The notes below the pieces were generated by a model. That model did no database searches, was not told the DNA's origin, and was given only the letters and a program-made list of their open reading frames with translations. Shown here piece after piece: positions 24,004-43,280 of a stretch of 43,280 nucleotides of DNA (positions are counted from its first letter, which is position 1; every line of letters starts with the position of its first letter). The stretch covers positions 1-43,280 of the forward strand of contig JAHDGP010000001.1 in NCBI GenBank assembly GCA_020627525.1. The letters are read 5' to 3'. Position numbers and translations under genes: made by a program. Origin of the DNA: Bacteroidota bacterium. Lineage in GTDB: Bacteria; Bacteroidota; Bacteroidia; Chitinophagales; UBA2359.

Positions 24004-24031
24004 TTCTTTGTTTTTTAGGTGTTTTAAAGAT

Positions 24032-24787: not shown

Positions 24788-25248
24788 TATTTTGAATTTT
24801 TATTGTCAATTTTTCAAAAAATATTTGTTCAATCCTCTATTTAACGGAGTACTTGAACTTATTTATGTCCTTCTTTTAGAAGTATTTATTAATCTACTGC
24901 TTCTTTTAACTTTCTGCAAACAATCTTTCTTATATAATAATGAAATTTTAATAAAAATGCAAGTTTGCATGTCAGCAGGGCTTGAAAAATAGCAATCTGT
25001 CTTTACAGTGTGAAATGTTAATTTTATGAATGAACCATTGAAATTGCTTGAGTATACCATAAGGTATTTGAGCTTTTATATTTTTCGAAAAAAAATATAA
25101 CATTTTGTATTTAAAAAGATGGTATCTATTTAGAATTTTATACGTCAACTTAAGAGAATCTAAATGCAACCTTATATTATGGCTTCTTATAATTTTTTAG
25201 ATTCAAATTGTTTAATATTTGTTTGTTTTTCCCCACTTTCTTTAAACT

Positions 25249-26776: not shown

Positions 26777-29700
26777 CTACTTTGTGTTTAATCCTTTTCC
26801 AAATAATTTACTCATTGTTCTATCTGTTAAAAAGTACATTACAGGTACAATGACAAGTGTAAGGAAGGTGGCGAAGATTAATCCAAAAATTACTGTCCAC
26901 GCCATTGGACCCCAAAACATAACATTATCACCACCAATGTAAATGGCAGGGTTGAAATCTCTCAGCAATCCTGTAAAGTCAATATTGAAACCAATAGCCA
27001 ATGGAATCAATCCAAGTACAGTGGTAATTGCAGTCAATAAAACAGGTCTTAAACGGGTTGCACCAGCTTCTACTATCGAATCAACAACCTCTTGTTTTGA
27101 AAGTCTTTTTTGATCTGATAATGCAAGTCCAGCACGTTTTCTCTGTCTGACAAGGTTGGTGTAATCTATCAATACAATTGCATTGTTTACAACAATTCCC
27201 GCTAATGAAATAATACCAATCCCCGTCATAATAACGATAAAGTCCATTTTGAAAATAGAGTATCCCAAGAAAACCCCTATAGTACTAAATACAACCGATG
27301 CAACAATAATTGCTGGCATCGCAATAGAGTTAAACTGTGATACGATGATTAAAAATATCAGTGCAACTGCAATTAAAAGAGCTGTCATTAGAAAGGCTGT
27401 AGACTCTTCTTGTTCTTCTTGCTCTCCAGTAAATTGAACCATATACCCTTCTGGCAATTGGTAATCTGCCATTAAATCTCTATAAGCAGAAACAATTTTA
27501 GTTCCGTTGAATCCTTCCAAAACATTAGAAGACAAAGAAACAACCCTTTGTAGGTCTTTTCTTTTTACTGATCCAATTGTTGACTCGTAATCGGAACTGG
27601 CTACGGCAGAAACAGGTATTTGAACTACTTGTCCATTGCTTTGATTTTTGAAAGTTATCTTTTGATTTAAAATAGTTGATAAATTATGACGATTCTCTTC
27701 ATTGAACCTCAGGTTAATTGGATATTCGTCTTCCCCTTGCTTAAAGGTTGAAACCTCTTTTCCGAAAACAGCCGTTCTTATATCGCTTGCAATCATACCT
27801 GTAGAGAGTCCGTATCTTCTCGCTTTGTCTCGGTCAATATTTACCAGCAACTCAGGCTTGTCTTTTTCTAGATTTACCTTTAATTCTTCGACTCCTTCAA
27901 CTCCAGAGTTTTCAAGATAAGTTTTTATATCTTCTGTCAATGCAATTAAGGTTTCATAGTCTTCTCCAATAACGTCTACATTTACAGGTGGTCCTGTAGG
28001 TGGTCCGTTTTGCTCTTTTTCTACAGTAATACTTACACCAGCAAAGTCTGACAAATTTTTTCTAATTTTCTCAAGAATTTCATTTGTTGATTGGTTGTTT
28101 CTTTTTTCAAATTCATAGAAAAAGATAGATACTCTTGACTTGTTTGGAGTGGCACTGGTGTTAAATCCTTCCATCGGATTACCAGCTCCTTTTCCAACAT
28201 TTGCCAAAACAGCTTCAACCATATATTCATAAGGCTCCAAGGTTTCAATTACGATGTCCTCTATTTCCTTGGTTGTTCTATTTGTTTTTTCAATATCAGT
28301 TCCTATGGGATATTCATTGTAAATAAAAATTTGATTGGGCTCACCATCTGGAAATAAAACAACATTGGGTTCACTGGATACGAATAGAGCTAAAGAACCA
28401 ATCAACATTAGGACAGTTGCAAACATAAATAAAAACGGTAAGAAACTACTCAATGCTAGACGGAGGAAACCTTTGTAAACTTTTTCAAGTACAGGCATTG
28501 CTGTTTCTAAAAATATTTTTGACAACGGTCTGAAAATGAACGTTTGAACAAGTATCAATACAGCTACAATAGCAGCTAAGCTTCCAATAATTCGCAATCC
28601 GCCACTATTGTTTTTAAATCCAAAGAAATAGGCAACGGTAGCAATAACTGCAAAGAATAAAAATGATAAGAATATTTTGGTGTAATTATTTTTTGCGTTT
28701 GGATCTTCCAAAACCATAAATCTAGAGGTTAAAACCGGATTGACAACCAATGCAACAAATAGAGATGATGCTAAAACAATTATCAATGTCATAGGTAGAA
28801 ACTTCATAAACTCACCCATAATTCCTTCCCAAAACAATAGAGGGACAAAGGCTGCTAAGGTCGTTGCTGTAGAAGCAATAATCGGCATCGCTACTTCACC
28901 TGCTCCCTCCTTCGCTGCACGGTACGGATCATACCCTTCTTGCATAAGTCGATAAATATTTTCGACAATAACAATACCATTGTCAACCAACATTCCCAAA
29001 GCCAGAATAAGGGAGAATAAAACCATCATATTTAAGGTTGCTCCCATAAATTGAAGGATCATAAACCCCATCAACATAGACAGTGGAATAGCGATTCCAA
29101 CGAATAATGCATTTCTCAATCCAAGGAAAAATAGTAAAACCAATACCACCAGAATTACCCCGGAAATGATACTGTTTTCCAGATTGCTAACCATACTCCT
29201 CGTTTGCTTAGAAGTATCATTAATCAGTTGTACTTTCAACTCATCAGGAAAGATTTCTTTTTGAGATTTGGCAATCAACTCTTTTACTTTATCTGAAGCT
29301 TTCAATAAATTAGTACCGCTACGCTTAATGATATTCAGCGTTACAACAGGTTGTTTATTTCCTCTGGAATAACTGCTGCTTTCCTCATAATCAAATTTTA
29401 CAGAAGCGATATCTTTCAGGTAAACAATGTTCCCTTTGCTGCTTTTTACGATAACATTTTGAAGTTCATTTACATCTTTGAATTCTCCGACCACTCTGAC
29501 ATTTCTCCTAATACCATCAGCCAAAACATCCCCACCCGAAATGGTGAGGTTTTCATTGGCAACTGCTCCTTCAATATCTCGCATCGTAACTTGGCGAGCT
29601 TCCAACTTATGTACATCTATATTGATGGATACTTCTTTGTCCTGAACGCCCGAAATATCTACCCTTGAAATTTCACTAAACTTTTCAATTTCGTCTTGCA

Positions 29701-30199
29701 AATATTCAGCGTAATCTTTAAGAACATCAATATCATTATAGCCTGATAATAAAATATTCATAACAGGCAAATTGCCAAAATCCAACTTTAAAGCATTGGG
29801 TTCAGCAGGCAAATCATTTGGCAGTTCAGCCTTGTCGATGGCGTCTTTTACCTCTTGCAACGCTTTGTCTGGATCGACATTTAAGTCAAACTTAACACTG
29901 ATACTAGAAAAATCCTGAATAGAGGTAGAACTAACCTCGTCAATCCCAGTAATCGTATTTATCTCTTTTTCTATAGGACGAGTAATGAGGTTTTCAATAT
30001 CCAATGGCGAATTTCCTGGATAGGCAGACCCCACATAAATTTCCGGTATTTTTATTTCTGGAAAATTTTCTTTAGGCATAGAGGTATAAGAAATCAAGCC
30101 CATTGTAATAATCAAAAATACTATCACAAATACACTCGTTCCATTGTCAATTGCCAACGTACTTAAAAAAAACTCTCTTACCGTACTTTTCTTTTCCAT
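26777..30199 (-). CDS. RND efflux transporter permease (AcrB/HAE1-like)
   Basis: 1140-aa ORF with 12-TM topology and two large periplasmic loops. The sequence is typical of the family throughout, for example 'FFLSTLAIDNGTSVFVIV' and 'GMLVDNGIVIVENI'. Confidence 0.93.
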   Translation of the reverse strand: MEKKSTVREFFLSTLAIDNGTSVFVIVFLIITMGLISYTSMPKENFPEIKIPEIYVGSAYPGNSPLDIENLITRPIEKEINTITGIDEVSSTSIQDFSSISVKFDLNVDPDKALQEVKDAIDKAELPNDLPAEPNALKLDFGNLPVMNILLSGYNDIDVLKDYAEYLQDEIEKFSEISRVDISGVQDKEVSINIDVHKLEARQVTMRDIEGAVANENLTISGGDVLADGIRRNVRVVGEFKDVNELQNVIVKSSKGNIVYLKDIASVKFDYEESSSYSRGNKQPVVTLNIIKRSGTNLLKASDKVKELIAKSQKEIFPDELKVQLINDTSKQTRSMVSNLENSIISGVILVVLVLLFFLGLRNALFVGIAIPLSMLMGFMILQFMGATLNMMVLFSLILALGMLVDNGIVIVENIYRLMQEGYDPYRAAKEGAGEVAMPIIASTATTLAAFVPLLFWEGIMGEFMKFLPMTLIIVLASSLFVALVVNPVLTSRFMVLEDPNAKNNYTKIFLSFLFFAVIATVAYFFGFKNNSGGLRIIGSLAAIVAVLILVQTFIFRPLSKIFLETAMPVLEKVYKGFLRLALSSFLPFLFMFATVLMLIGSLALFVSSEPNVVLFPDGEPNQIFIYNEYPIGTDIEKTNRTTKEIEDIVIETLEPYEYMVEAVLANVGKGAGNPMEGFNTSATPNKSRVSIFFYEFEKRNNQSTNEILEKIRKNLSDFAGVSITVEKEQNGPPTGPPVNVDVIGEDYETLIALTEDIKTYLENSGVEGVEELKVNLEKDKPELLVNIDRDKARRYGLSTGMIASDIRTAVFGKEVSTFKQGEDEYPINLRFNEENRHNLSTILNQKITFKNQSNGQVVQIPVSAVASSDYESTIGSVKRKDLQRVVSLSSNVLEGFNGTKIVSAYRDLMADYQLPEGYMVQFTGEQEEQEESTAFLMTALLIAVALIFLIIVSQFNSIAMPAIIVASVVFSTIGVFLGYSIFKMDFIVIMTGIGIISLAGIVVNNAIVLIDYTNLVRQRKRAGLALSDQKRLSKQEVVDSIVEAGATRLRPVLLTAITTVLGLIPLAIGFNIDFTGLLRDFNPAIYIGGDNVMFWGPMAWTVIFGLIFATFLTLVIVPVMYFLTDRTMSKLFGKGLNTK

Positions 30200-30249
30200 A
30201 CCCTTTTATAAATTACAATTTGTATTTCTATTTCTATTTTTTCCTTTCT

Positions 30250-30344
30250 CACCAGCTCACTGAGCTCACAAAGGTCACTGAGCGAAGCCGAAGTGAACGG
30301 AGCCGAAGTGAGCCGAAGCACGGTTGCTGAGCGGAGTCGAAGCA
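30250..30344. repeat. Degenerate GC-rich repeat block filling the mfp-rnd intercistronic spacer
   Basis: It contains GCTCACTGAG (30255-30264), GGTCACTGAGCGAAGCCGAAGTGAAC and CCGAAGTGAGC (30303-30313). These are the same cores as the array at 31555-31761. The block abuts the mfp stop at 30345-30347. Confidence 0.7.
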
Positions 30345-31502
30345 CTACCTAATCCTCAAAAGTGAACCATCCTTAACCAAATTGCCGCCTTCCGCAACCA
30401 ATTCTTCGTCGCCAGTCAAACCCGCTTCTATAAGCGTTTGTCCCTCAAAAGATTTTCCTGTTTTTATTATTTGTTTTTTTGCTCGTTTACCCGAAGGAGT
30501 TTGTTCTATAACAAAAACAAACTCTTCACCAGCATTTCTTCTTACAATATTCGTTGGGACAACAATAGCATCTTCAGCCTTAAACTGAGAAATTTTTATC
30601 ATCGTCTGCAAATTAGGTTTTAAAACCCTGTCTTTATTCGAAATATTTGCCTCAATTTTAAATGTCCTGTTATTTGGATTAATGAGCGTTCCTATTTTAG
30701 TAATTTTTGCCTCACGATCCATATTCAAAGAAGGAATGTGAACATTTATTTTTGACCCTTTTTTAATTACTGGTAAATAAGTCTCAGCAACATCAGCAAC
30801 AACTTGAACATTTGCAGTACTGATGATATTTATAATCGGAACACCAGGCGATGCAAGTTCTCCTTGACGCAAATTAACTCGTTCAACAACACCACCCGCA
30901 GGAGCATAAACATTGGCTTTTGAAATTTGAGTGCCCAAAGTTTCAATACTCTTCTCTAAAGATTCAACATTGTTTTTAGCTGTTAAAAATTCGATCTCCG
31001 ATCCTATATTTTGCTTCCATAAACGCTCACGTCTTTCAAAAACATCTCTTGCCAATTTCAATTTCAATTCTAATTCCCCTTTGCTTTTAAGCGTAGACTC
31101 ATTGTCAATTGTGGCAACCAAACTGCCTCTGCCAATAGCGTCTCCTTCTTTGTAATTCATTGAAGTTATGGTTCCTGGAATTTCTGAAGTAGCAGTATAA
31201 TTTCCTTTCGTTTCAATGTTTCCAACGATTTCAATAAATTCCTCAAAGTCTTTTTTCTCCACTTTCGTAGTAGTAATGTTCAAGGCTTTTTCTTTCTTTA
31301 CCGACGAAGGGTCGAGCTCTGCAATTTCAGCTTCCAACTTTTCAATCTCTGCTTTCAACTCAGCAACCTTGTCTTTGTTTTTTGTAAGCGCTTCACGTTT
31401 TCCTTCAAGCGTACTGGTGTCAATCTCAGTATCATTCGAACAAGACCCCAATCCTATCAAAATAAAACCGATTAATGTTAATATATAAATGCTTCTTTTC
31501 AT
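30345..31502 (-). CDS. RND efflux periplasmic adaptor (membrane fusion protein), lipoprotein
   Basis: 385-aa ORF with lipobox 'LIGLGSCS'. It has a coiled-coil hairpin ('ELKAEIEKLEAEIAEL') and HlyD/barrel-sandwich layout. Confidence 0.9.
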   Translation of the reverse strand: MKRSIYILTLIGFILIGLGSCSNDTEIDTSTLEGKREALTKNKDKVAELKAEIEKLEAEIAELDPSSVKKEKALNITTTKVEKKDFEEFIEIVGNIETKGNYTATSEIPGTITSMNYKEGDAIGRGSLVATIDNESTLKSKGELELKLKLARDVFERRERLWKQNIGSEIEFLTAKNNVESLEKSIETLGTQISKANVYAPAGGVVERVNLRQGELASPGVPIINIISTANVQVVADVAETYLPVIKKGSKINVHIPSLNMDREAKITKIGTLINPNNRTFKIEANISNKDRVLKPNLQTMIKISQFKAEDAIVVPTNIVRRNAGEEFVFVIEQTPSGKRAKKQIIKTGKSFEGQTLIEAGLTGDEELVAEGGNLVKDGSLLRIR

Positions 31503-31554
31503 CCTAATAATTTATTCCAGTATTTTATATTTTTTTTCATAACTAAAAATTCAT

Positions 31555-31761
31555 CACTCCCGCTCCCGAAGTGAGCACTCCCGCTCCCGAAGTAAGCCCT
31601 CCGCTCACTGAGGTACTCGAAGTGAGCACTCCCGCTCCCGAAGTGAGCCCTCCGCTCACTGAGGTACTCGAAGTAAGCCCTCCGCTCACTGAGGTACTCG
31701 AAGTAAGCCCTCCCGCTCACTGAGGTACTCGAAGTGAGCTCACCAAGGATCTCGAAGTGAG
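31555..31761. repeat. Mosaic tandem repeat array (8 units of 21-31 nt) filling the tolC-mfp intercistronic spacer
   Basis: Unit A is CACTCCCGCTCCCGAAGT(G/A)AG (21 nt) at 31555, 31576 and 31627. Unit B is CCCTCC(C)GCTCACTGAGGTACTCGAAGT(G/A)AG (30-31 nt) at 31597, 31648, 31678 and 31708. A terminal 23-nt variant lies at 31739. Each B unit carries the inverted pair GCTCACT/AGTGAGC. Confidence 0.9.
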
Positions 31762-31764
31762 CAC

Positions 31765-33135
31765 TCAAAACACTCCGTTTGCTTTATCCAAGTTCGTTTT
31801 TGCAATTAGCAAATTGTATAGAGCCTGGAGAAACAATCCTTGAGTTTGATACAGTTCCGATTCGGCTGCATTTACTTCAAGGCTAGATCCTAAACCTTCT
31901 TTGTATTTAATAAGCGAAGTGTTGTATATCTTTTCTGCTAGAGAAATATTTTCTCTTTGACTTTTTAACTGTTCTAGTGAACTTAAGTATTCAACTCTTG
32001 TCTTATTGAGTTCTAAGTTGAAAGATTGCTCCAAAATAGATTTGTTGTATTTTAGTTGAATGCCTTTTAATTTTTTCTGTTCAATATTTGCAGAACCTTT
32101 AAATCCACTAAAGATTGGAACCTTTAACTGAAGTCCAACCAAAAAAGTAGGGAACCAGAAATTGGTGTCAGCAATTTTGCTCAATGAATTTTGCTGCCAA
32201 TTTTGCTGATAAGAAGCAAATGCTGACAAAGATGGACGCCCTTGCCATTTTACATTTTTTATATCCAATTCATTCAATAGTTCCTGTTTTTCCAGTAATC
32301 TATATTCAACTTTTGTTCTAGGGTTAAATTTGCTAGAATCATCAATTATAACATTTTCTATAAGTGGTAAAATTTTTTCCAAACCATCTGACAAACCAAT
32401 GTCTTGTTTTTCAGTATAGCCCATTTGGAATTTCAAAGCTTCTTTTGCCATATACAATGATCTTTTAGACGTTCCAATTTGAATATTTAAATTCGACAAT
32501 GATAAATTTAAACGATCAACATCTAAAAGCTCAATAAAGCCATTCTTATATAATTGAGTCGTTTCAAATAAAACTTTCTCAACATTGCTTTTGTTTTTTT
32601 CGAGAATCTCAATTTGTGCTTTGTTAAGCAATACACCGTAATAAGCTTGTGAAACAGAAAATTTAACTTGCTCTACAGATTGGGTTATTTCTTCATTTCT
32701 CAATGTTGCATACTCTTTTGCCGCTTCTAATGCAGTTAAGTAAGAACCACTGAAAACCAATTGGCTGGCATCCAAAGAAAACCCTACTGTATTATCGGTA
32801 CCAAACTGTAATTCTATGTATTGATCTTCAGGTGCATTAGGATCTCCAAATTGAGTAGCTGGAACCAGGTTAGTGGGTAATTGAAAGAAATGGTTGAAAT
32901 CTAAATTAGCATTAATTTGAGGCAAACCTGTTGCCCTGATTTCTTTCATTTGCTGTTCAGCAATTTGCGTATCTGTTTTTTTTATTTTTATATTGATATT
33001 GTTATTGAGCGCATAAGCCTTTGCCTCCTCTAAACTGAAATATCTCAAAGAATCTTTTTCACTTTGCGCTAAACAAAAGTGTTGCATTAAAATTAAAATC
33101 AATGCATATATATATGTATTCTTATTCATGATCAT
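31765..33135 (-). CDS. TolC-family outer membrane efflux protein
   Basis: 456-aa ORF with signal peptide 'IYALILILMQHFCLAQ'. It shows the two-repeat alpha/beta architecture typical of OEP family proteins and is the first gene of the efflux operon. Confidence 0.85.
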   Translation of the reverse strand: MIMNKNTYIYALILILMQHFCLAQSEKDSLRYFSLEEAKAYALNNNINIKIKKTDTQIAEQQMKEIRATGLPQINANLDFNHFFQLPTNLVPATQFGDPNAPEDQYIELQFGTDNTVGFSLDASQLVFSGSYLTALEAAKEYATLRNEEITQSVEQVKFSVSQAYYGVLLNKAQIEILEKNKSNVEKVLFETTQLYKNGFIELLDVDRLNLSLSNLNIQIGTSKRSLYMAKEALKFQMGYTEKQDIGLSDGLEKILPLIENVIIDDSSKFNPRTKVEYRLLEKQELLNELDIKNVKWQGRPSLSAFASYQQNWQQNSLSKIADTNFWFPTFLVGLQLKVPIFSGFKGSANIEQKKLKGIQLKYNKSILEQSFNLELNKTRVEYLSSLEQLKSQRENISLAEKIYNTSLIKYKEGLGSSLEVNAAESELYQTQGLFLQALYNLLIAKTNLDKANGVF

Positions 33136-33284
33136 TACTTAGGAATGCTGATAAAATGAATTTTCAATTTTGCTTGGTTCATTTTTGTTTCTTACAGTAC
33201 AGAAAACATAGACCCACCAAGGCAAAGATGAGGTTTTCTGACAAAGCTAGAAGCAAAAAGCAACAGTTAAATTTGTAAAGTTAT

Positions 33285-33896
33285 TCAATCATCATCCTTA
33301 ATTATTTTAGTAAAATATTTAACTCCCTTTTCTGTCGAAATTCCCAAAACATGATATTTAATGAACTCAACATATACATCTGCTATATTGAATAAGTCCG
33401 GAGGGAATAACACATTATTGGTAATTTGCTCCAATTGACTCACGTACATCTTAGTAATAATATCAACATTTAAGCCACTTCTGTATAAGCCTTCAGAAAT
33501 TCCTAATTCTAGATTCTGTTTTATATATGCTGTAATGAATTCATCATGGTGATTTTCAATAATCGTCCAGCAGTTTTTGTAATACTTTTTTAAATCAAAT
33601 ACTGCTGATGGATTCATTTTTCTCAATATTGAATGATTAATTTTTGCTACCTCAACAAGCAAATCTATTGCATTAAATGATTTGTTTTCATAAATATCAT
33701 TGATTTGACTGGTTGATTTTGCAATATGGTCATTAATGGTTTGTCTTACTAAATCTTCTTTGTTTTCTACATATTGATAAATCGTTTTTTTTGACATTCC
33801 TAGTTCTTTGGATAAATCATCCATTGAAATACTCTTGATTCCATATCTAAAGAATAACTCCTTAGCAGTTGATATGATTTTATCTGATTCTTTCAT
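33285..33896 (-). CDS. TetR/AcrR-family transcriptional regulator
   Basis: 203-aa ORF with an N-terminal HTH 'GIKSISMDDLSKELGMSKKTIYQYVENKEDL'. It lies upstream of, and co-directional with, tolC-mfp-rnd. Confidence 0.9.
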   Translation of the reverse strand: MKESDKIISTAKELFFRYGIKSISMDDLSKELGMSKKTIYQYVENKEDLVRQTINDHIAKSTSQINDIYENKSFNAIDLLVEVAKINHSILRKMNPSAVFDLKKYYKNCWTIIENHHDEFITAYIKQNLELGISEGLYRSGLNVDIITKMYVSQLEQITNNVLFPPDLFNIADVYVEFIKYHVLGISTEKGVKYFTKIIKDDD

Positions 33897-33926
33897 TGCT
33901 ACAAAGATAATACATTAAAAACCCAG

Positions 33927-33952
33927 GAAACTATAAAATGGTTTACAGTTTC
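33927..33952. promoter_or_regulatory. Candidate TetR operator
   Basis: GAAACTaTAAA-atgg-TTTAcAGTTTC has 11-nt arms with one mismatch. It lies 31 nt upstream of the tetR ATG at 33896. Confidence 0.35.
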
Positions 33953-34445
33953 TATATTTTTTTTAGAAAAATGAATTTTTAGGCTAAAATCTTACGCGTT
34001 GTAATTGAGGTGGTAAGAAAAAATAGAAATAAATCAGTAACATTTAAGCTTGGACGAGTAATAATTTCATTAATTCTGCCAAAAAACAAATTGCATTGAT
34101 AATTATTGAAATCTTACCCGACTTTTATTATTTTACAGTAATTTTATCACTAAACTGCTGATTATTAGGATTGAATAGTATAACAGTATTGTGCAATATG
34201 ATAACATATTCATTTTTTTTGAGTTTGATTGACGTTAATAAAAGGTCAATGGTTGCCTTTTAAGTAGGGTGATTTTATAGATAATGATAAGGATTTGAGG
34301 AGGTAAGAAGTTGACGCCATTTTACCTGTTTTTTAGGTAAACTTCCAGTTAGCTTTGAGGTCAGAAAGCTGAAATTAGAAATTGATTTTGATTTTCTAAA
34401 GATTTTAAAACAATAAAAAAGAATATATAATTTAATTTTTATCCT

Positions 34446-37400
34446 ATGAGAAATACACAATTACGAAAATTTTGGTTCTTTGTGGGACTCTTGTTTACAC
34501 TTGCTCAAGTTGGATACGCACAATGCGGACCAGGGCAAGACAACACAAGACCTACCTTTGCAGAGCCATATTTTTCGTTAGATGTTTATGTAGAATGTGA
34601 GGAGGATGTGGTGATTACTCCCCCAACGCCAATGGATGATTGTACAACAAACCCTACCTTAACTATAGTTGAAGACATTACAACTACTGGATCTTGTCCC
34701 AATCAATTTATTAGAATAATTAATTATCAAGCGGAAGATGAAGCAGGAAATACAGCTTTATTCAGCTTGAGTATTCAAGTTTTGGATTTGGTTCCACCTG
34801 TTTTTGATCAATCTGCAAATGAATTGAATCAAACTGTAAGTTGTGAAGATGATATTGTTATAGTGGAGCCAACTGCTACAGATAACTGCAATATGCAGGA
34901 TGTTGCTATTTTCTCAACAGAAAATGAGCAAATTGGGGATTGTCCATTCAATTTTAATAGAACTGTTACATACAGAGCAATTGATGAATGTGATAACTTT
35001 TCTTTTTATTCAATTGTTTACACTGTTCAAGACAATGATGCGCCAGTCTTTGATTTAGCAGCAGGAGCTTTAGATCAAACGGTCAGTTGTGTTTCTGAAA
35101 TAGAAGCTTGGGAAATACCAACGGCAACTGATAATTGTGGAGATGCACAAGTGCAAATAGCCTCAGATGAAACTGTTGAAGGTGCTTGTGAGAATAGCTT
35201 TACCAGAACCATTGTTTATGAAGCAACAGATTTATGTGGAAATGTGGCTCAGTATCAAGCAGTAATAACTGTAAATGATGATACAGCACCAGTATTTACA
35301 ACAAATCCTGGTGAGCTTGATTTTGCATTTAATTGTTCTGATAATGTGGAAATTGACATCCCTCTTCCTGTTGCTACTGATAATTGTGAAGGAAATGTCT
35401 TAGTAAAAATTATTGGAGATGCATCTATAGACGGAGATTGTGCAGGCAGTTCGATAAGAACAATTACCTATGAAGCGGTTGATGCTTGTGGAAATCAAAG
35501 CGAACCTTTCACAGTTGAAATAACAATTGGTGATACAAGCCCTCCAGTTTGGGTAACTGAAATAAATGCTTTAAATATTGAATATGCTTGCGATGAAGTT
35601 GCGGATGTAATACCAGTTCCAGAAGCATCGGATTTATGTGGAAATGCTATAGTAGAACTTACTGGCAGTAATTCTATTGAAATGGGTTGTACCGGAAATT
35701 CGCAATTAGTATATATATATACCGCTACAGATGAATGTGGCAATGTTTCTGATGCTGAATTTATTGTAACTATTACAATTACTGATAATGAAGCACCTAC
35801 TTTTGTTGAAGAAGCTGGAGCATTGGATGTAGCACTTTCTTGTAATGAAGTAGCTGCTTTTACATTGCCAGTTCCTACTGCATCTGATAATTGTAGTGAA
35901 ACAGAAGTTACTTTAATAAATGATGAAACAACAACAAGTGCAACTTGCGCTGCAAATTATACAAGAGTTTTAACTTACCAAGTGGCAGACCTTTGTGGAA
36001 ATGAAGGGGAGACCTACGATGTCACAATTACTGTTTCTGATAATGAAGCTCCTAACTTAACTGGTTTGTTTGACGAAAATGTTTCTGCTGGTTGTGGCGA
36101 AACACCAGAGGTACCTATTGTTCAAGTAAATGACAATTGTGATTCAGATGTAGAGTTGGTCTATTCTGCTGATACGACTGAAGGAAGCTGTGCTGGTGGA
36201 TACATTATAACGAGAACTTGGTCAGCTACAGATGATTGTGGAAACACTGCTGAAAGAACGCAGGTAGTTGCTGTAGAAGATAACGTAAAGCCAGTTATTA
36301 CAGGAGTACCTGCAAGTACGAATGCAAGTTGTGACTTGATTCCAGAAGCAGGTGAACTACAGGTTTTTGATAACTGTGATGATGCTCCTGAAATAATATT
36401 TAACGAAAATATAGTAGATGGCAATTGCCCAAACAATTACACATTAAGAAGAGTTTGGCAAGTCATTGATGATTGTGATAATGAAACAATTGCAATTCAA
36501 GAAATAACAGTAAGAGATAATGAAGGTCCTGTTTTTGACAATTTCCCTGCAAATACAGAAGTGAGTTGTGGAACTGTTCCAGCAGCGGCTGAAGTAACAG
36601 CGATTGATAACTGTGGTGGTGATATTACATATGATTTTGAAGAAGCATACAATTATGATGAATGTCCTTACACATTGACAAGAACTTGGACTGCAACAGA
36701 TGCTTGTGGAAATGAAACTTCAAGATCTCAAATTATTACTTTAACTGACGAAGAAGGACCAACTTTTAACAATGTGCCTTTAGCAGCAAATGTTGACTGT
36801 AATGGAATACCTACTGCTGGTCAGCCAACTGTCTCAGACAATTGTGATGATAATGTGCAAATGCAAATGACAGAAGAAACGGAAGGAGATGGTTGCCCTT
36901 ATACAATAATTAGAACTTGGACAGCAACTGACCTTTGTGGGAATACAAACTCCGTTTCTCAAACAATTACTGTTTCAGATAATGCAGGACCAGAAATTCA
37001 AGATGTGCCTGCTGATATAACTATAAACTGTTCTGATCTAGAAGCAGCTCCAGAATTAATAGCAATAGATAATTGTGCTGGAGAATTGACGACAGAATTT
37101 GCTGAAATTACGAATGGTGAAGGTTGTGACCTTACTATAATAAGAACTTGGACAGCAACCGATCTTTGTGGAAATATTTCTACAGCTTCTCAAACAATTT
37201 CAGTTTCTGATGACGAAGACCCTACTTTCGATGTAGTTTTTGACAATCCATATGAAGTAGCTTGTGGAGGAACAATTCCTGAAATGCCAATAGTAAATGC
37301 ATTTGACAATTGTGGAGAAGTGACTGTGGAATTTGATGAGTCAAATAATTTTGGAATTTGTGAAGGAGATGAAACAATTTTCCGTAACTGGAGAGCAACA

Positions 37401-40400
37401 GATGCTTGTGGAAATGTAAATGTAATTCAACAAATAATAAAAATTGGAGATCAAAATGCTCCTGTGTTTACAGAAGGTGAAGGGGAGTTAGATGTAGCTA
37501 TTTGTGCGGGTGATATTGAAAACGTTCCAGCTCCAAATGTTACGGATGGATGTTCTGCTGTTGAATTGAATTTTAACGATGAAACATTTGACACAGATTG
37601 TGCGAGTCATCAATTAGTTGTAAGAACTTATACAGCAACAGATGCTTGTGATAATACAAGTACTTACATCCAAAACATAAATATTTACGGTGATATTACT
37701 GCTACAATATCCACAATAGATGGTAGCTGTGATGTTCAATTAAATACAGATTGTAATGGTTATTCTATCATTTGGTTTGATGATGCTGGAAATACTGGAA
37801 GTGGCAATTTATACAGTCCATTGGTTGAAACTACTGGTACAGTTACTTTTGCAGTTTCTAGAGCAAATGCACCAACAGATTGTAATGCTGAATCATTTGA
37901 ATACTCTTATGATTGTACCAATACTTGTCCACAAATAGTTTCTGCTTCAACAAGCGAGTTGCATATTTGTTCAGGTACTAGTTTTGGTCTAATTGCAGAT
38001 GTTATAAATGAAGATGGTGGTACTTTAACATGGTACGATGCTGCTGGAAATGTCATTGCTAATCCTAATGCTGTTTCTATGGAAAACAATACTTGTGAAT
38101 CAATGAAGTTGACATTTACAGCTGAGTATGTTTCTGTAAATGACAATTGTCCAACAGTGACAATGACTACAAATGTTATAACTATTTATCCAGAAATTTC
38201 TTACGAAGTTTCGAATAATGGATGTGAGATTGAAATAACAAATTTCTGTGACGGATTTTTTGTTAGTTGGGTAGATGATTATGGAAAACCTGGAAACGAA
38301 ACGAGCTATTCTGCGGAAGCAGGTGGTCAAGGAACAGTAACTTTTACTATCTTCAATACAGATGCTTCTCAAGCACCTTTACAATGTCAATTTGTGACAA
38401 TTAACGAAGATTTTGATTGTGGTGATTGTCCAACACTTTCTGATCCAACAATTAGTGAGGTGAGTATTTGTTCAGGTGACTTTATTTCTTTAGATATTAA
38501 TATAGTAAATGACAATGGTGGATCTCTTATGTGGTATGATAGCAATGATAACTTAGTACCAGATCCTTCTAAAATATTTTTAAATACAGAAAATTGTAAT
38601 GGAGAGAGTTTCGGCTTTTATGCTGCATATACTCCTTCAGGTGATTATTGTGATTTAGTGGTTTCTGACATAGCCACAGTAACCGTATATCCGCAGATTG
38701 AAGCAACCATCATTTCTGAAGGATGTACGGTTGCTTTGAACAACATTAATTTGTGTACTGGCGACTTTGAAATTTCTTGGTCAGATGATCAAGGCAATTC
38801 TGGAAATGGTCCTATTTATACAGCTGCAGGTGGTTCAACTGGCAACGTGACTTTTGTAATAACAAATACAGCAACGAATGTTCCCGACAATTGCGCAACA
38901 GCGACTTTCGTTTCGGCATATGCTTGTGCAACTTGTCCTGTAATAACTTTAGATGATGATGTAACTTCAGCTGTTTGTTATGGAGAGGCAATTCCACTTT
39001 CTGCAAGTGTTGAACCCAATGTTGGGGGGACTGTTCAATGGTACCACGAATCAGGTGTGTTGTTGAATGATTTGACTTTAGACGATTTGAATTATGATGT
39101 TTGTTCAGGTGCAGTATTGAACTACTATGCTGAATTTACTCCGACAAATACAGATTGTCCAGCGGTTCAAACAGAGATGGCTACAGTTACTATTTATCCA
39201 TCAATAGATGCAACTGCTGTTTCTAGTGGATGTCAAGTATCCTTAAATGACTACTGTGAGGACTTTACCGTAACTTGGGAAGACAGCAACGGAAATACAG
39301 GAACAGGAGATAGCTTTACTCAAACAAATGGTGAAAATGGTTCTGTAACATTTACAGTAACAAACCCTAACGGTTTAGATAACTGTAGTTCTGCTACATT
39401 TACAGCTACTTCAAACTGTAGTGCTTCTTGTCCGTATATTTATAATGTAGAGTGCAGCCCTCCTACAGTTTGTGATGGCGAACCTTTCTCATTAATAGTT
39501 GCAATTTCTAACCTTGACGGTGGAACGATTCAATGGTATGACGAAAATGATAATTTAATAATAAATACAAATGACATCGTTGTTGATGTGGATGAGTGTA
39601 ATGGTGGTTCTTTTGGATACTATGCAGTTTATACACCTGCAAATGCAAGTTGTGGAAGTGTAACTTCTGAGCTAGCTTACGTTACAGTTTTTCCAAATAT
39701 TACAGCTGAAGTTTCTGGTGAAAATTCTTGTAATATTGATTTGATAAATAATTGTGAAAACTTAAATGTCGAATGGGTTGATAATTTGGGTAATACAGGT
39801 ACAGGTAGCAGTTATACTGCAACATCTGGTTCTTCAGGTTCCGTAACATACACCGTTACGAATCCTGATCCAGATGTACCTGCATCCTGTTTAAATGAAG
39901 TGTTTGGTCCTTACGACTACGCTTGTGCAAATTGTCCACTAATATACAGTCCAACTTGTGATCCTTCTGTAATCTGTGAAGGAGAGTCATTTAGTCTAAA
40001 CGTTATTGTTACAGACCTTGATGGCGGTACAATACAATGGTATGATGAAAATGATAATTTAATTGAGGACATTAATGATATTGTTGTTGATATAAATGCT
40101 TGTGAAGGTGGTCAGTTTGGCTACTATGCAGTATATACTCCTGCAAACACAAACTGCGAAGTTGTAACAACAAATTTAGCATACGTTACAATCTATCCAA
40201 GTATTGTTGGAAATATTCAAAACAATGGATGTGAAATTTTATTAGAAGATAACTGTCCATCTTTCCCCGTAACTTGGGAAGACAGTGAAGGACATACAGG
40301 GGTAGGTACAACTTACTCGGCAGATGGTCCTGGAACTGGTTCAGTAACATTTACTATAAATAATTCAACAGCAGGCGTTCCTGATCATTGTCAAACAATG

Positions 40401-43280
40401 ACTTTCAATGCGGACTATGAATGCATTGCTTGTCCTGAAATATTTAATCCTGTTTGTGATCCTCCTGTTATTTGTGCAGGTGAAGCATTTAGCTTAAACG
40501 TTGGAATCAATAACTTAGATGGTGGTACACTTCAATGGTATGATCAAGCTGGTAATGCCATTACAAATTCACAAGATATTGTTTTAGATATTGATGCTTG
40601 TACTGGTGGTCAGTTTGGTTACTATGTGGAATATACTCCTGTAAATGCAAACTGTCCTACAGTTTCAACGGAGTTGACTTATGTTCAAGCTTATCCTCAA
40701 ATAAATGCAGAGGTTGTTGAAAACGGCTGTGCAATTGAATTGACTAATACTTGTCCAGATCACGTAATTAGTTGGACGGATGATTCAGGAAATGCTGGTA
40801 TTGGTGGAGATTATACTGGTATGCCTGGTACTGCTGGTGTTGTAACATACACTGTAACTAATCCTGTATCTGGTGTTCCAGGAGCTTGCTTGAGCAATAC
40901 TTACGAGGCAAACTACGATTGCCCTGTTTGCCCGGAAATAGCAAATGCAGCTTGTAGCCCTTCTAATATTTGTGAAGGAGAGTCATTCAGCTTGGCTGTT
41001 TCAATTTCAAACTTGGATGGTGGTACCGTTCAATGGTATACGGAAGATGGAACACCAATTTACTCGACAAATGATATTGTTTTAGATATAAATGAATGTA
41101 CAGGTGGTCAGTTTGGCTACTATGTAGAATATACGCCTGCAAATGCAGAATGTCCTGTAGCTGTTTCTGAAACGGCATATGTGACTATTTATCCATCAAT
41201 AAATGCACAAATTGTTTCTGATGGATGTAATGTTTCTTTGGATGGATATTGTGCTGATTTTGACATTGCTTGGACTGATGATTTAGGAAACGCAGGAACA
41301 GGTGATGCATTCTCAGGAGCAAATGGCGAGAGTGGTTCTGTAACATTTACAGTTACCAATCCAAATGGAATGGAAGGCTGCGAATCAAATACATTTACAA
41401 CTGATTATGCTTGTATTGATTGCCCAACAATTTTCCAACCTGCTTGTAGTCCTCCAGTGATTTGTGAAGGAGAAGCATTTAGTTTGGTTGTTGGATTTAA
41501 CAACTTAGATGGTGGAACTTTACAATGGTACGATGAATCAGGAAATCCAATTACAAATACTGCTGATATAGTATTGGATTTGGATGTTTGTGAAGGTGGT
41601 ACCTTTGGTTACTATGTGGAATATACGCCAGGAAATACTGATTGTGCGACTGTTACAACAGAATTGACATATGTTACTGTATATCCTCAAATTACTGCGG
41701 ACGTTGTTACAAGCGATTGTCAGGTAACACTTGAAAACTATTGTGAAGATTTCAATATTGCTTGGTATGATGATTCTGGAAATACTGGAAATGGAGACAC
41801 TTTCCTAGGTGACGGTGGAACAGGAACAGTTACATTTAATGTAACCAATACTGGTGCGACAGGAAATTGTTTGAGTCAAACATTTACTTCAGGTTATAGT
41901 TGTGACGGAGTTGAATGCCCACAATTGGGAACGCCTTCTATTTCTTCAACTGATATTTGTTCTGGTGAATCAGTAACATTAACAGTTGAGTTAACAAATG
42001 GAAATGGTGGAACTTTAGCTTGGTTTGATCAAGCTGGAAACGAAGTTGATCCAACAGAATTAACTTTGACAAATACTTCTTGTGATACTGAAATTCATAA
42101 TTATTACGCTGCATATATTTCTGGAAATGCAAACTGCCCTGATATAAATACTGCTACGGTTTCTGTAAATGTTTATCCAGAAATTTCTTACGATATTGAG
42201 ACGGATGGATGTAATATTACCATCACAAATTACTGTGAAAACTTCTGGGTCAACTGGGTTGATTCAAATGGTAAACCAGGTGAAGGAAATGTATTTGTAG
42301 GAAATGCTGGTGAGTCAGGATTTGTAGACTTTACTATCTATAATCCAACAACTGGTCAAATTCCACTTAACTGTCAATATAATTTCTTCTCTGTTGATTA
42401 TACTTGTGGAGATTGTCCTAGTTTGACAAATCCAACAGCAACCCCAGCTTATGCTTGCGATGGTGAGACGGTATCATTAAACATTAATGTTGCAAATGAT
42501 GACGGCGGTTCATTGGTTTGGTATGATGCAGACAACAATGTAGTTACAGACCCAAGCAGTGTAGTTGTTTCAACTGCTACTTGTGGTGACGAGGTATTTG
42601 GATATTATGCAGTGTATACTCCTGCAAGTACTTCTTGTTCAGAGTTGACATCTGCTTCAACATATGTACACGTTTATCCAACAATAACAGCAACTCCAGT
42701 TGTGGAGGAATGTGAAGTTTATTTATCAAACTTAAACAACTGTGATGCATACGAAATTACTTGGTCTGATGATTTAGGAAATACTGGATCGGGTGATACC
42801 TATTTACCAGAAGAAGGCACAGCTGGAACAGTAACATTTGTTGTAACAAACAATACAGCTGGAACACCAGATGCCTGTGCTTCTGCTACATTTACAGCAA
42901 ACTTTGATTGTACGAAAGAAGTGATTTTTGATTTAGCATTACAAAAAACTTTGGCGGCTGGTCAAAATGCAGTTGTAAATGTTGGTGATCAAGTTACTTA
43001 TACAATCACAGTTTACAACCAAGGTCAAGCAACAACTCAGAACATAGTTGTTTCTGATTATATTCCAACTGGTTTAACTTTAAACGATTCAAATTGGAGT
43101 GGTACAGCAACAACAGTTACTACAACAGTTGCAGGTCCTATCTTGCCAAACAGTTCAACAACGGTTGATATTACATTTACTGTAACAGCAAACTTTGCTG
43201 GAACTATAAGAAATTATGCTGAAATCACTTCTGCCGAAGATGAAGATGGAAATCTACAAGGTGACATAGATTCAACTCCT
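34446..43280 (+). CDS. Giant secreted cell-surface repeat protein (adhesin-like), 5' partial; the ORF runs off the window end
   Basis: I translated the frame by eye from ATG 34446. It gives 2945 sense codons to base 43280 with no stop. The signal peptide is 'MRNTQLRKFWFFVGLLFTLAQVGYAQ'. Conserved Cys-containing repeat motifs stay in this frame throughout. The ORF is absent from the supplied track, presumably because it has no stop in the window. Confidence 0.9.
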   Translation, partial: MRNTQLRKFWFFVGLLFTLAQVGYAQCGPGQDNTRPTFAEPYFSLDVYVECEEDVVITPPTPMDDCTTNPTLTIVEDITTTGSCPNQFIRIINYQAEDEAGNTALFSLSIQVLDLVPPVFDQSANELNQTVSCEDDIVIVEPTATDNCNMQDVAIFSTENEQIGDCPFNFNRTVTYRAIDECDNFSFYSIVYTVQDNDAPVFDLAAGALDQTVSCVSEIEAWEIPTATDNCGDAQVQIASDETVEGACENSFTRTIVYEATDLCGNVAQYQAVITVNDDTAPVFTTNPGELDFAFNCSDNVEIDIPLPVATDNCEGNVLVKIIGDASIDGDCAGSSIRTITYEAVDACGNQSEPFTVEITIGDTSPPVWVTEINALNIEYACDEVADVIPVPEASDLCGNAIVELTGSNSIEMGCTGNSQLVYIYTATDECGNVSDAEFIVTITITDNEAPTFVEEAGALDVALSCNEVAAFTLPVPTASDNCSETEVTLINDETTTSATCAANYTRVLTYQVADLCGNEGETYDVTITVSDNEAPNLTGLFDENVSAGCGETPEVPIVQVNDNCDSDVELVYSADTTEGSCAGGYIITRTWSATDDCGNTAERTQVVAVEDNVKPVITGVPASTNASCDLIPEAGELQVFDNCDDAPEIIFNENIVDGNCPNNYTLRRVWQVIDDCDNETIAIQEITVRDNEGPVFDNFPANTEVSCGTVPAAAEVTAIDNCGGDITYDFEEAYNYDECPYTLTRTWTATDACGNETSRSQIITLTDEEGPTFNNVPLAANVDCNGIPTAGQPTVSDNCDDNVQMQMTEETEGDGCPYTIIRTWTATDLCGNTNSVSQTITVSDNAGPEIQDVPADITINCSDLEAAPELIAIDNCAGELTTEFAEITNGEGCDLTIIRTWTATDLCGNISTASQTISVSDDEDPTFDVVFDNPYEVACGGTIPEMPIVNAFDNCGEVTVEFDESNNFGICEGDETIFRNWRATDACGNVNVIQQIIKIGDQNAPVFTEGEGELDVAICAGDIENVPAPNVTDGCSAVELNFNDETFDTDCASHQLVVRTYTATDACDNTSTYIQNINIYGDITATISTIDGSCDVQLNTDCNGYSIIWFDDAGNTGSGNLYSPLVETTGTVTFAVSRANAPTDCNAESFEYSYDCTNTCPQIVSASTSELHICSGTSFGLIADVINEDGGTLTWYDAAGNVIANPNAVSMENNTCESMKLTFTAEYVSVNDNCPTVTMTTNVITIYPEISYEVSNNGCEIEITNFCDGFFVSWVDDYGKPGNETSYSAEAGGQGTVTFTIFNTDASQAPLQCQFVTINEDFDCGDCPTLSDPTISEVSICSGDFISLDINIVNDNGGSLMWYDSNDNLVPDPSKIFLNTENCNGESFGFYAAYTPSGDYCDLVVSDIATVTVYPQIEATIISEGCTVALNNINLCTGDFEISWSDDQGNSGNGPIYTAAGGSTGNVTFVITNTATNVPDNCATATFVSAYACATCPVITLDDDVTSAVCYGEAIPLSASVEPNVGGTVQWYHESGVLLNDLTLDDLNYDVCSGAVLNYYAEFTPTNTDCPAVQTEMATVTIYPSIDATAVSSGCQVSLNDYCEDFTVTWEDSNGNTGTGDSFTQTNGENGSVTFTVTNPNGLDNCSSATFTATSNCSASCPYIYNVECSPPTVCDGEPFSLIVAISNLDGGTIQWYDENDNLIINTNDIVVDVDECNGGSFGYYAVYTPANASCGSVTSELAYVTVFPNITAEVSGENSCNIDLINNCENLNVEWVDNLGNTGTGSSYTATSGSSGSVTYTVTNPDPDVPASCLNEVFGPYDYACANCPLIYSPTCDPSVICEGESFSLNVIVTDLDGGTIQWYDENDNLIEDINDIVVDINACEGGQFGYYAVYTPANTNCEVVTTNLAYVTIYPSIVGNIQNNGCEILLEDNCPSFPVTWEDSEGHTGVGTTYSADGPGTGSVTFTINNSTAGVPDHCQTMTFNADYECIACPEIFNPVCDPPVICAGEAFSLNVGINNLDGGTLQWYDQAGNAITNSQDIVLDIDACTGGQFGYYVEYTPVNANCPTVSTELTYVQAYPQINAEVVENGCAIELTNTCPDHVISWTDDSGNAGIGGDYTGMPGTAGVVTYTVTNPVSGVPGACLSNTYEANYDCPVCPEIANAACSPSNICEGESFSLAVSISNLDGGTVQWYTEDGTPIYSTNDIVLDINECTGGQFGYYVEYTPANAECPVAVSETAYVTIYPSINAQIVSDGCNVSLDGYCADFDIAWTDDLGNAGTGDAFSGANGESGSVTFTVTNPNGMEGCESNTFTTDYACIDCPTIFQPACSPPVICEGEAFSLVVGFNNLDGGTLQWYDESGNPITNTADIVLDLDVCEGGTFGYYVEYTPGNTDCATVTTELTYVTVYPQITADVVTSDCQVTLENYCEDFNIAWYDDSGNTGNGDTFLGDGGTGTVTFNVTNTGATGNCLSQTFTSGYSCDGVECPQLGTPSISSTDICSGESVTLTVELTNGNGGTLAWFDQAGNEVDPTELTLTNTSCDTEIHNYYAAYISGNANCPDINTATVSVNVYPEISYDIETDGCNITITNYCENFWVNWVDSNGKPGEGNVFVGNAGESGFVDFTIYNPTTGQIPLNCQYNFFSVDYTCGDCPSLTNPTATPAYACDGETVSLNINVANDDGGSLVWYDADNNVVTDPSSVVVSTATCGDEVFGYYAVYTPASTSCSELTSASTYVHVYPTITATPVVEECEVYLSNLNNCDAYEITWSDDLGNTGSGDTYLPEEGTAGTVTFVVTNNTAGTPDACASATFTANFDCTKEVIFDLALQKTLAAGQNAVVNVGDQVTYTITVYNQGQATTQNIVVSDYIPTGLTLNDSNWSGTATTVTTTVAGPILPNSSTTVDITFTVTANFAGTIRNYAEITSAEDEDGNLQGDIDSTP
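34539..37694 (+). repeat. 13 tandem ~81-aa four-Cys HYR-like modules (coding repeat)
   Basis: The period is ~240-250 nt. The module pattern is D..(A/P)P.F ... C ... P.A(T/S)DNC(G/D) ... C ... (R)T(W/Y)TA.D.CGN ... I.V.D. The D.CGN/D.CDN motif occurs 13 times, from 'AEDEAGN' near 34745 to 'ATDACDN' near 37640. Confidence 0.85.
37695..42911 (+). repeat. 10.5 tandem copies of a 164-169-aa bipartite Cys-rich module (coding repeat)
   Basis: In-frame unit starts are 37695, 38196, 38697, 39204, 39699, 40203, 40701, 41199, 41691, 42183 and 42684. The last unit is an A-half only. Each unit follows 'YP(E/Q/S/N/T)'. A-half example: 'GC.V.L...C..F.V.W.DD.GN.G.G..Y....G.VTF.V.N....C...F...Y.C'. B-half example: 'CP....P....IC.GE.FSL.....DGG..QWYD.......C.GG.FGYYA.YTP.N..C......YVT.YP'. 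Confidence 0.9.
42915..43280 (+). other. DUF11 / 'conserved repeat domain'-type beta-sandwich at the window edge (within the giant CDS)
   Basis: 'VVNVGDQVTYTITVYNQGQATTQNIVVSDYIPTGLTLND...TVDITFTVTAN..G.IRNYAEITSAEDEDGNLQGDIDSTP' matches the DUF11/TIGR01451 signature (Gd.vtYtitv.N.G...a.nv.v.D.iP.Gl) as I remember it. Confidence 0.6.

Follow-up and report, generated by a model that had tools for sequence, protein, structure and literature searches.

The 5′ part of a conserved gene for a giant cysteine-rich protein, probably a type B cargo of the type IX secretion system, in an uncultured Chitinophagales bacterium

Results

A frame of 2945 codons without a stop

We analysed a 43,280-nucleotide stretch of DNA (the window: GenBank assembly GCA_020627525.1, contig JAHDGP010000001.1, positions 1 to 43,280) from an uncultured Chitinophagales bacterium, and found that its final part, 34446-43280 on the plus strand, is a real, conserved gene. 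[quoted passage not shown] The original prediction, made by reading the window, had claimed that the frame stays open for 2945 codons from the ATG at 34446 to the window end, had taken it for the 5′ part of a giant surface protein, and had named an in-frame stop, should careful translation find one, as grounds for giving up the claim.

Machine translation of 34446-43280 yielded 2945 codons with zero stops, reaching the last base of the window, whereas the other five frames across the same 8835 bases contain 208, 331, 120, 131 and 170 stops. Even at the lowest stop density of these rival frames (~4% per codon), the probability of an open run of 2945 codons is ~e^-120. The nearest in-frame stop on the 5′ side is a TAA at 34428, five codons away from the ATG and, since none of these five codons (FNFYP) is ATG, GTG or TTG, the ATG at 34446 is the sole possible start. 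The frame takes up 20.4% of the window (8835/43280), in agreement with the earlier estimate that about 20% would otherwise look non-coding. In the list of open reading frames (ORFs), the entries for this region span just 56-91 aa; eleven are antisense, and 37756..37938 (+) is out of the frame of the giant gene because it begins 3310 bases after 34446 (3310 mod 3 = 1). The prediction had therefore described the list correctly, as short antisense or out-of-frame ORFs, and had rightly blamed the empty track on how ORF callers behave at a window edge: the ORF lister leaves out ORFs that run off the source sequence. Its statement that the repeat motifs never leave this frame also stands, as profile analysis keeps the repeats in frame throughout.

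Homologues, selection and synteny

The closest database homologue of the window product is P0001, a protein of 5029 aa that is 75% identical at a query coverage of 100%. The two are collinear, with 3 gap positions and 77% nucleotide identity, and their comparison gives a proportion of synonymous differences (pS) of 0.54 and of non-synonymous differences (pN) of 0.14, with a pN/pS of 0.26. Because this ratio is near-uniform along the gene (0.29 in the signal peptide, 0.24 in the HYR region, 0.28 in the A/B region and 0.28 in the DUF11 domain, all described below), the coding region is under purifying selection as a protein along its whole length. Other relatives are P0002 (locus L004), with 4856 aa and 54% identity to the window product; a 5187-aa ORF in a Chitinophagales metagenome-assembled genome (locus L001), 59% identical over the last 694 aa of the window product; and P0031 (locus L005), a shorter relative of 2649 aa that is 36% identical. 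Scans of species-representative genomes and of JGI metagenome contigs with the last 694 aa recovered relatives only, at 59% and 43% identity, and not the source contig. The order of the domains matches two independent assemblies unit for unit.

The surroundings of the gene are likewise shared. Upstream of P0001 (locus L002), on the opposite strand, lie genes for a TetR regulator, an outer-membrane efflux protein (OEP), a membrane-fusion protein and an AcrB-type pump, and this gene order is the same as that at 26777-33896 of the window. As far as they are readable, the upstream genes at L004 encode TetR, OEP, the fusion protein and a 1212-aa product, and those at L001 encode TetR and OEP.

Signal peptide and HYR_4C array

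The original prediction of a clean signal peptide agrees with what we see by eye at the N-terminus (Table 1). The putative Sec signal peptide, a feature of type B cargo of the T9SS, consists of a basic n-region (MRNTQLRK), a 12-residue hydrophobic core (FWFFVGLLFTLA) and QVGYA, which provides a small-residue -3/-1 site with cleavage predicted at GYA|QCG. The A|QCG(P/S)G junction is kept in the homologues P0001, P0002, P0031 and the L001 product (the number of homologues is also given as five). A Gln at position +1 follows the Bacteroidetes Q-rule (PMC5837995), which Gln26 of the window product fits, and a Gln directly before the Cys argues against a lipobox.

The signal peptide is followed by a tandem array of four-cysteine, HYR-like domains. 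Pfam HYR_4C (PF23237) matches the product in 11 stretches with 201.5 bits against a cut-off of 27, and an iterated self-trained hidden Markov model (HMM) resolves the array into 13 contiguous copies of ~80 aa at residues 51-1099, each with 4 Cys and with the core (T/Y)A(T/V)DxCGN. In these respects the window product resembles other HYR and HYR_4C proteins, and the region is common to more than 2,700 database proteins. It differs from them in what comes next: the A/B array described below is present in just 4 of the 120 best HYR_4C relatives, and most of the others have a type A domain (Por_Secre_tail) at the end, or SprB repeats.

An alternating array of two Ig-like domain types

The middle of the product is occupied by 21 domains of ~75-90 aa each, which alternate strictly between two types, A and B. 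Iterated HMMs merge A and B into one superfamily with two alternating subtypes. The original prediction had spoken of three different repeat architectures; the HYR_4C and A/B arrays bear this out for two of them, while the third, DUF11, is present in a single copy in the window and is no repeat there. An AB unit comprises 166 aa, with 8 Cys that are invariant over 40 copies from four proteins. The units of the window product are 27-60% identical to one another and match the units of P0001 one for one.

AlphaFold2 models a single AB unit as two all-beta domains (beta-sandwiches) with a mean predicted local distance difference test score of 93.4, and a Foldseek search of the PDB with this unit returns tandem Ig modules (JAM, titin, sidekick) as well as the Ig-like neck and base of GhpA from Aureispira. 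By sequence, the AB unit profile matches a titin Ig domain with an E-value of 2e-5. No Pfam or NCBIfam family reaches its threshold for either the A or the B domain, the resemblance of B to hGDE_N being sub-threshold, and Pfam Ig_7 (PF19081) gives no match, with the whole protein or with single modules, even at E <= 10. We also used a proxy Ig_7 profile, built only from proteins without A-type domains and seeded with a segment assigned to Ig_7 by Pfam (E 1.9e-10); the proteins matched by the seed were verified as true Pfam Ig_7 arrays with 9-25 copies each. Because this proxy profile matches all 10 B domains of the window product (E 1e-11 to 3e-6) and hhalign gives it a probability of 98.2% with the B profile (versus 26% with the A profile), we take the B-type domain to be a divergent relative of Ig_7, the 'CHU_C-associated' Ig-like domain. 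The B domains share the pattern C-x-G-x(3)-L ... W-Y ... Y-Y ... C with the Ig_7 arrays of large CHU-type proteins; unlike in those arrays, B here alternates with a four-cysteine A-type domain, which brings the invariant Cys of the AB unit to eight. The A-type domain itself matches no curated family at the level of sequence.

Several other families were tried for these modules and rejected. hGDE_N (PF14699) reaches 49.6 bits over the whole protein as a sum of weak matches, with no stretch passing alone, and its 20.6 bits in a single B module fall below the cut-off of 22.1; we regard it as a generic beta-sandwich resemblance. MORN_2, OmpL47, LIC_13241 and RrgB are either sub-threshold or lack a stretch that passes alone, and reflect generic beta-sandwich or low-complexity resemblance.

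The AB profile matches 513 of 1.84 billion cluster representatives at E <= 1e-3, part of these matches being owed to the Ig_7 kinship of the B half, and 71 at E <= 1e-30. The A-type domain is present in at least 85 proteins among those retrieved; one member of the A/B family is named 'Ig-like domain-containing protein [Chitinophagales bacterium]' by NCBI. Among the best 65 A/B-family proteins longer than 600 aa, a Pfam scan of the C-termini finds 36 ending in CHU_C and 21 in Por_Secre_tail, such that 57 (88%) carry a T9SS sorting domain; since this is so, the A/B module appears to belong to T9SS cargo. [quoted passage not shown]

The DUF11/CLIPPER domain and the composition of the product

The last domain in the window is a DUF11/CLIPPER (CnaA-like) domain. 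Its scores exceed the cut-offs of both PF01345 (59.3 bits versus 24.6) and TIGR01451 (37.8 versus 24), and the window ends 2 residues past it. Lys2834, in the motif DLALQK, is one of 10 Lys in the 2945 aa and is conserved in P0001; a late Asn, in RNYAEI, is also present. This makes Lys2834 a candidate for the lysine of an intramolecular isopeptide bond. CLIPPER domains are stalk elements of fibrillar adhesins, often with such a bond, which some DUF11 domains lack (PMC12617251). Like the CLIPPER fibrillar adhesins of that study, the window product would be a long extracellular protein in which a signal peptide and a sorting domain accompany the stalk repeats, and its DUF11 domain is above threshold with the N-terminal Lys conserved; unlike them, it has a single CLIPPER domain in the window (P0001 has one and P0002 two) and no CLIPPER stalk. 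A sequence search of the PDB with the DUF11 domain returned no hit, not even the solved CLIPPER structure, and hence no alignment to it.

In composition, the window product (310 kDa) is cysteine-rich and strongly acidic, with 141 Cys, 436 Asp+Glu, 10 Lys and 23 Arg and a calculated isoelectric point of ~4.05. Of the ten lysines, two lie where the CLIPPER domain begins or immediately before. The tripeptide D-[ST]-[AILVMT], which we take to be the Bacteroidota O-glycosylation sequon, is strongly depleted, with 3 sites where composition shuffles give 18.0 +/- 3.6 (z = -4.1); the most frequent residue, Thr, nevertheless comes after Asp in only 7 of 245 cases. The homologues and several other giant T9SS proteins are depleted likewise, while Chitinophaga P0007 shows the opposite (z = +9.4).

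Taken together, these domains are those of extracellular fibrillar proteins and, along with purifying selection and synteny, they uphold the interpretation of the frame as the 5′ part of a giant surface protein.

The C-terminal end and the PorP/SprF partner of the relatives

The remainder of the architecture can be read from the relatives. Past the DUF11 domain, P0001 has another A/B array, its second, up to ~residue 4690, two Big_9/cadherin-like (Cadherin_5) domains and a type B sorting domain, CHU_C/TIGR04131, which scores 69.4 bits with CHU_C (PF13585; cut-off 27) and 41.7 bits with TIGR04131 (cut-off 35). CHU_C also ends the L001 product (72.5 bits) and is among the precomputed Pfam hits of P0002 and P0031. 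A PorP/SprF gene lies 580 nt 3′ of the giant gene of P0001 (PF11751, 232 bits; TIGR03519, 242.6 bits), 76 nt from those of P0002 and P0031 and 104 nt from that of L001. Thus, the original prediction of a T9SS sorting domain with an adjacent PorP/SprF gene came true in 4 of 4 related loci whose 3′ ends were readable; for this copy, the end falls outside the window. Between the partners of P0001 and P0002 the identity is 65%. At three loci, L001, L002 and L005, the PorP gene has no OmpA/PorE-like gene after it.

That the host has a T9SS is indicated by the window itself, because it holds both a PorP/SprF gene at 2156-3091 (TIGR03519) and the gene of a protein with a type A CTD (Por_Secre_tail) at 24032-24787. 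The former, on the plus strand and scoring 247 bits with TIGR03519, has no type B cargo gene beside it, and its neighbour on the other strand is an L,D-transpeptidase-like gene. We rejected it as the cognate partner of the giant protein, given 33% identity to the partner of P0001 versus 65% between true partners, and it is a paralogue or an 'orphan' shuttle.

These same data also supply what speaks against the proposed type B surface filament: the C-terminal 40% of the gene, and whatever follows it, fall beyond the window; the type B domain and the PorP partner are inferred from relatives that are 54-75% identical (36% for P0031); and the sole PorP/SprF gene in the window is the paralogue mentioned above, 31 kb away.

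A proposed course for the protein

Type B cargo depends on a cognate PorP/SprF-like protein, whose gene usually lies directly downstream (PMC12618676, PMC9143113); the CTD drives secretion and steers the cargo to its final place (PMC12618676), and to become anchored at the surface, type B proteins associate with PorP-like proteins (PMC9143113). By analogy, the giant protein would be exported via Sec, and signal peptidase I would cut after Ala25 to expose Gln26. Oxidative folding in the periplasm would then produce a string of ~58 disulfide-locked beta-sandwich domains, of which 13 HYR_4C, 21 A/B and 1 CLIPPER domain are encoded in the window and ~21 more A/B and 2 Big_9/cadherin-like domains are added by homologue analogy. 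The protein would pass through the T9SS via its type B CTD and be handed over to the PorP/SprF-type outer-membrane protein encoded directly downstream, which would hold the filament on the cell surface. Extended, and at ~4 nm per domain, the displayed filament may measure ~200 nm; for comparison, the 5898-aa GhpA forms hooks measuring 240 nm (bioRxiv 10.1101/2024.01.29.577165). The HYR_4C array at the N-terminus would make up the distal end, the one farthest from the cell and likeliest to bind, and the A/B arrays with the CLIPPER domain would form the stalk. That this copy ends as its homologues do, and with it the surface anchoring, the filament geometry and the adhesion function, is what we infer from these analogies.

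Alternative explanations

Repetitive genes misassemble easily and this one is cut by the window end, which raises the question of whether the frame represents one functional gene at all, rather than a decaying pseudogene, a chance open frame or a chimera of collapsed repeats. We consider this extremely improbable, and for the part inside the window it is already refuted: the frame has 0 stops where the other frames have 120-331, pN/pS is uniformly low over the gene, and the match to two independent assemblies is collinear unit for unit. Inside the window we also reject recent amplification and an assembly collapse. The repeats are old and diverged and, because they are only 27-60% identical at the protein level and Tandem Repeats Finder detects no DNA tandem repeat, there is nothing in the window to collapse. 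The second A/B array of P0001 (L002 ~19718-21709; residues 3240-3903) is different in this respect: several of its AB units are almost identical, and we conclude that it was amplified recently, in contrast to the old and diverged first array, the one in the window. Such near-identical units could break assemblies and, if 43280 is the contig end, they or a duplicated CLIPPER domain, as in P0002, could explain the break.

With the gene established, the question becomes what kind of type B filament it encodes. The systems nearest in design are F. johnsoniae SprB/SprF and Fjoh_3952/Fjoh_3951 and P. gingivalis PG1035/PorP: these, too, pair a Sec signal peptide with an extracellular protein that is very large and repetitive, and the homologues found here add the CHU_C/TIGR04131 end with a PorP/SprF gene 76-580 nt downstream, as in the published cases (PMC12618676, PMC9143113). 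In contrast to them, the passenger consists of HYR_4C, A/B Ig-like and CLIPPER domains, with neither SprB repeats nor sprC/sprD. It is possible, though rather unlikely, that the protein is a moving gliding adhesin, loaded on the gliding track and propelled along the cell like SprB, and not a static fibre; this would be a sub-case of the type B filament rather than an alternative to it. The homologues do share the SprB design (they are giant and repetitive, their CTD is of type B and a PorP/SprF-type gene sits directly downstream). In F. johnsoniae the static type B cargo Fjoh_3952 is encoded with a PorE-like gene and the mobile cargo (SprB, Fjoh_4750, Fjoh_1123) without one (PMC12618676), and the lack of such a gene at L001, L002 and L005 leans weakly towards mobile cargo, but this rule is built on a handful of F. 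johnsoniae proteins. Moreover, the SprB repeat (PF13573) is not detected in the 2945 aa at E <= 0.01 and is absent from the precomputed Pfam hits of P0001 and P0002, none of the gliding genes was seen in the window, and in place of the upstream genes of a sprC-sprD-sprB-sprF operon there are a divergent TetR gene and RND efflux operon. Because it lacks both the SprB repeats and the sprC/sprD context, the window product is not a SprB orthologue. A multimeric 'grappling hook', in which copies are bundled side by side into a rigid, disulfide-braced appendage like the prey-catching GhpA of Aureispira, appears very unlikely. GhpA has much the same plan, with a signal peptide, an N-terminal adhesin-like region, tens of Cys-rich Ig-like repeats, a T9SS domain and a downstream PorP homologue (bioRxiv 10.1101/2024.01.29.577165); it is a giant T9SS substrate of similar size (5898 aa, versus ~5000 in the homologues here) with a long disulfide-rich Ig-like stem, and Foldseek superposes the AB unit on its neck and base repeats (9flp, 9fly) with template modelling (TM) scores of 0.43-0.49, that is ~0.45. 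However, generic tandem-Ig proteins (JAM, titin, sidekick) do equally well or better by Foldseek E-value, and no sequence similarity to the GhpA chains was found: phmmer with the whole product finds no PDB match at E <= 0.01, and the AB profile no GhpA match at E <= 10. The GhpA locus also has both PorP and PorE homologues downstream, whereas the related loci here have the PorP-type gene without a PorE-like one, and the N-terminal region of the window product is a HYR_4C array and not the GhpA hook. The type B surface filament held by its own PorP/SprF protein thus remains the reading that we favour.

Table 1. Coordinates of the giant gene, its encoded domains and a candidate promoter element in the window
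Feature	Positions	Strand	Basis
Partial coding sequence, 5′ part, 2945 codons without a stop; putative giant secreted cell-surface protein	34446..43280	+	Open frame, single possible start, 75% identity to P0001, pN/pS 0.26
Predicted Sec/signal peptidase I signal peptide, residues 1-25, MRNTQLRKFWFFVGLLFTLAQVGYA then QCGPG	34446..34520	+	Sequence inspection by eye; conserved junction
13 tandem HYR_4C (HYR-like, 4-Cys) domains, residues ~26-1083, period ~80 aa	34521..37694	+	Pfam PF23237 and self-HMM
Ig-like array, 11 A-type and 10 B-type domains in strict alternation (21 in all), residues 1084-2822	37695..42911	+	Self-HMM, alignments, AlphaFold2, Foldseek
DUF11/CLIPPER (CnaA-like) domain, residues 2829-2943, profile positions 1-111 of 114	42930..43274	+	Pfam PF01345, TIGR01451
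Candidate Bacteroidota-type -7 promoter box, TAGCTTTG (fits TAnnTTTG)	34350..34357	+	Conserved upstream; 89 nt before the ATG

DNA upstream of the giant gene

In an alignment of the upstream regions, TAGnTTTG followed by GTCAnAA occurs at the same position in 4 of 4 related regions. TAGnTTTG has the form of what we take to be the Bacteroidota -7 box, and the candidate promoter box of Table 1 draws its support from this conservation across related loci only, given that TAnnTTTG is not enriched in the window as a whole (61 found versus 72 expected). A scan for sigma-70-type promoters upstream was not above chance (6 found, 4.3 expected) and these were discarded. All four regions upstream of the giant gene keep two GTAAGAA motifs, at 34013-34019 and 34303-34309 of the window, and a small hairpin, TTTACCT-N7-AGGTAAA at 34321-34341, is shared with L002 only. 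Further upstream, adjoining the start of the TetR gene, the inverted repeat GGAAACT-N14-AGTTTC (33926-33952) is kept in 4 of 4 related loci; it probably serves the divergent RND efflux operon as its TetR operator. A scan of the whole window at Rfam gathering thresholds gave no match.

Other features of the window

Elsewhere in the window, dnaA is located at 3147-4601 (-) (TIGR00362, 527.7 bits), near the minimum of the cumulative GC skew and a change in the sign of the skew (~7-8 kb); the window therefore probably spans or adjoins the chromosomal replication origin. The named relatives of this DnaA are all labelled Chitinophagales, save for one metagenome-assembled genome record labelled 'Bacteroidetes' and one labelled 'Fimbriimonadaceae'. 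Two adjoining ORFs, 4948-5862 (-) and 5903-6628 (-), match respectively the N-terminal and C-terminal halves of UshA-type 5′-nucleotidases and may be either a split gene pair or a single frameshifted gene. Between the carotenoid-type genes (18756-21743) and the AcrB gene lies a block of ~5 kb (21970-26769) with a family-less 694-aa ORF, a 251-aa protein that overlaps it and has a type A T9SS domain (Por_Secre_tail), and a family-less 506-aa ORF. Because the desaturase gene directly abuts AcrB at the syntenic locus L002, this block is an insertion or deletion difference. The 506-aa ORF (25249-26769) was considered as a relocated copy of a 506-aa gene from downstream of P0001, and this was dismissed, the two being unrelated.

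Significance of the giant gene

For annotation, this case illustrates that stop-to-stop ORF calling misses giant genes at contig edges, here at the cost of one fifth of the window. What lacks annotation here, namely the A-type domain and its strict alternation with B, is a matter of detail rather than a new principle, and a Pfam or NCBIfam model of the A-type domain would improve the annotation of such proteins. We think it unlikely, and hold it as a speculation, that the alternation, with its 8 invariant Cys per pair, constitutes a distinct rigid stalk module which, with the PorP/SprF partner, forms a new T9SS-anchored appendage, for example a capture device that is multimeric like GhpA, or an adhesin carried on the track yet unrelated to SprB; if this were true, an A/B-based appendage of uncultured Chitinophagales would be more than a generic adhesin. 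By analogy, the protein would instead be of an ordinary though poorly annotated kind exported by the T9SS, in the functional class of SprB and GhpA. As such it does not open a long-standing question; it adds what is probably a type B cargo of the T9SS, giant and well delimited, with cargo and PorP/SprF as a conserved two-gene module, from a lineage known only from metagenomes.

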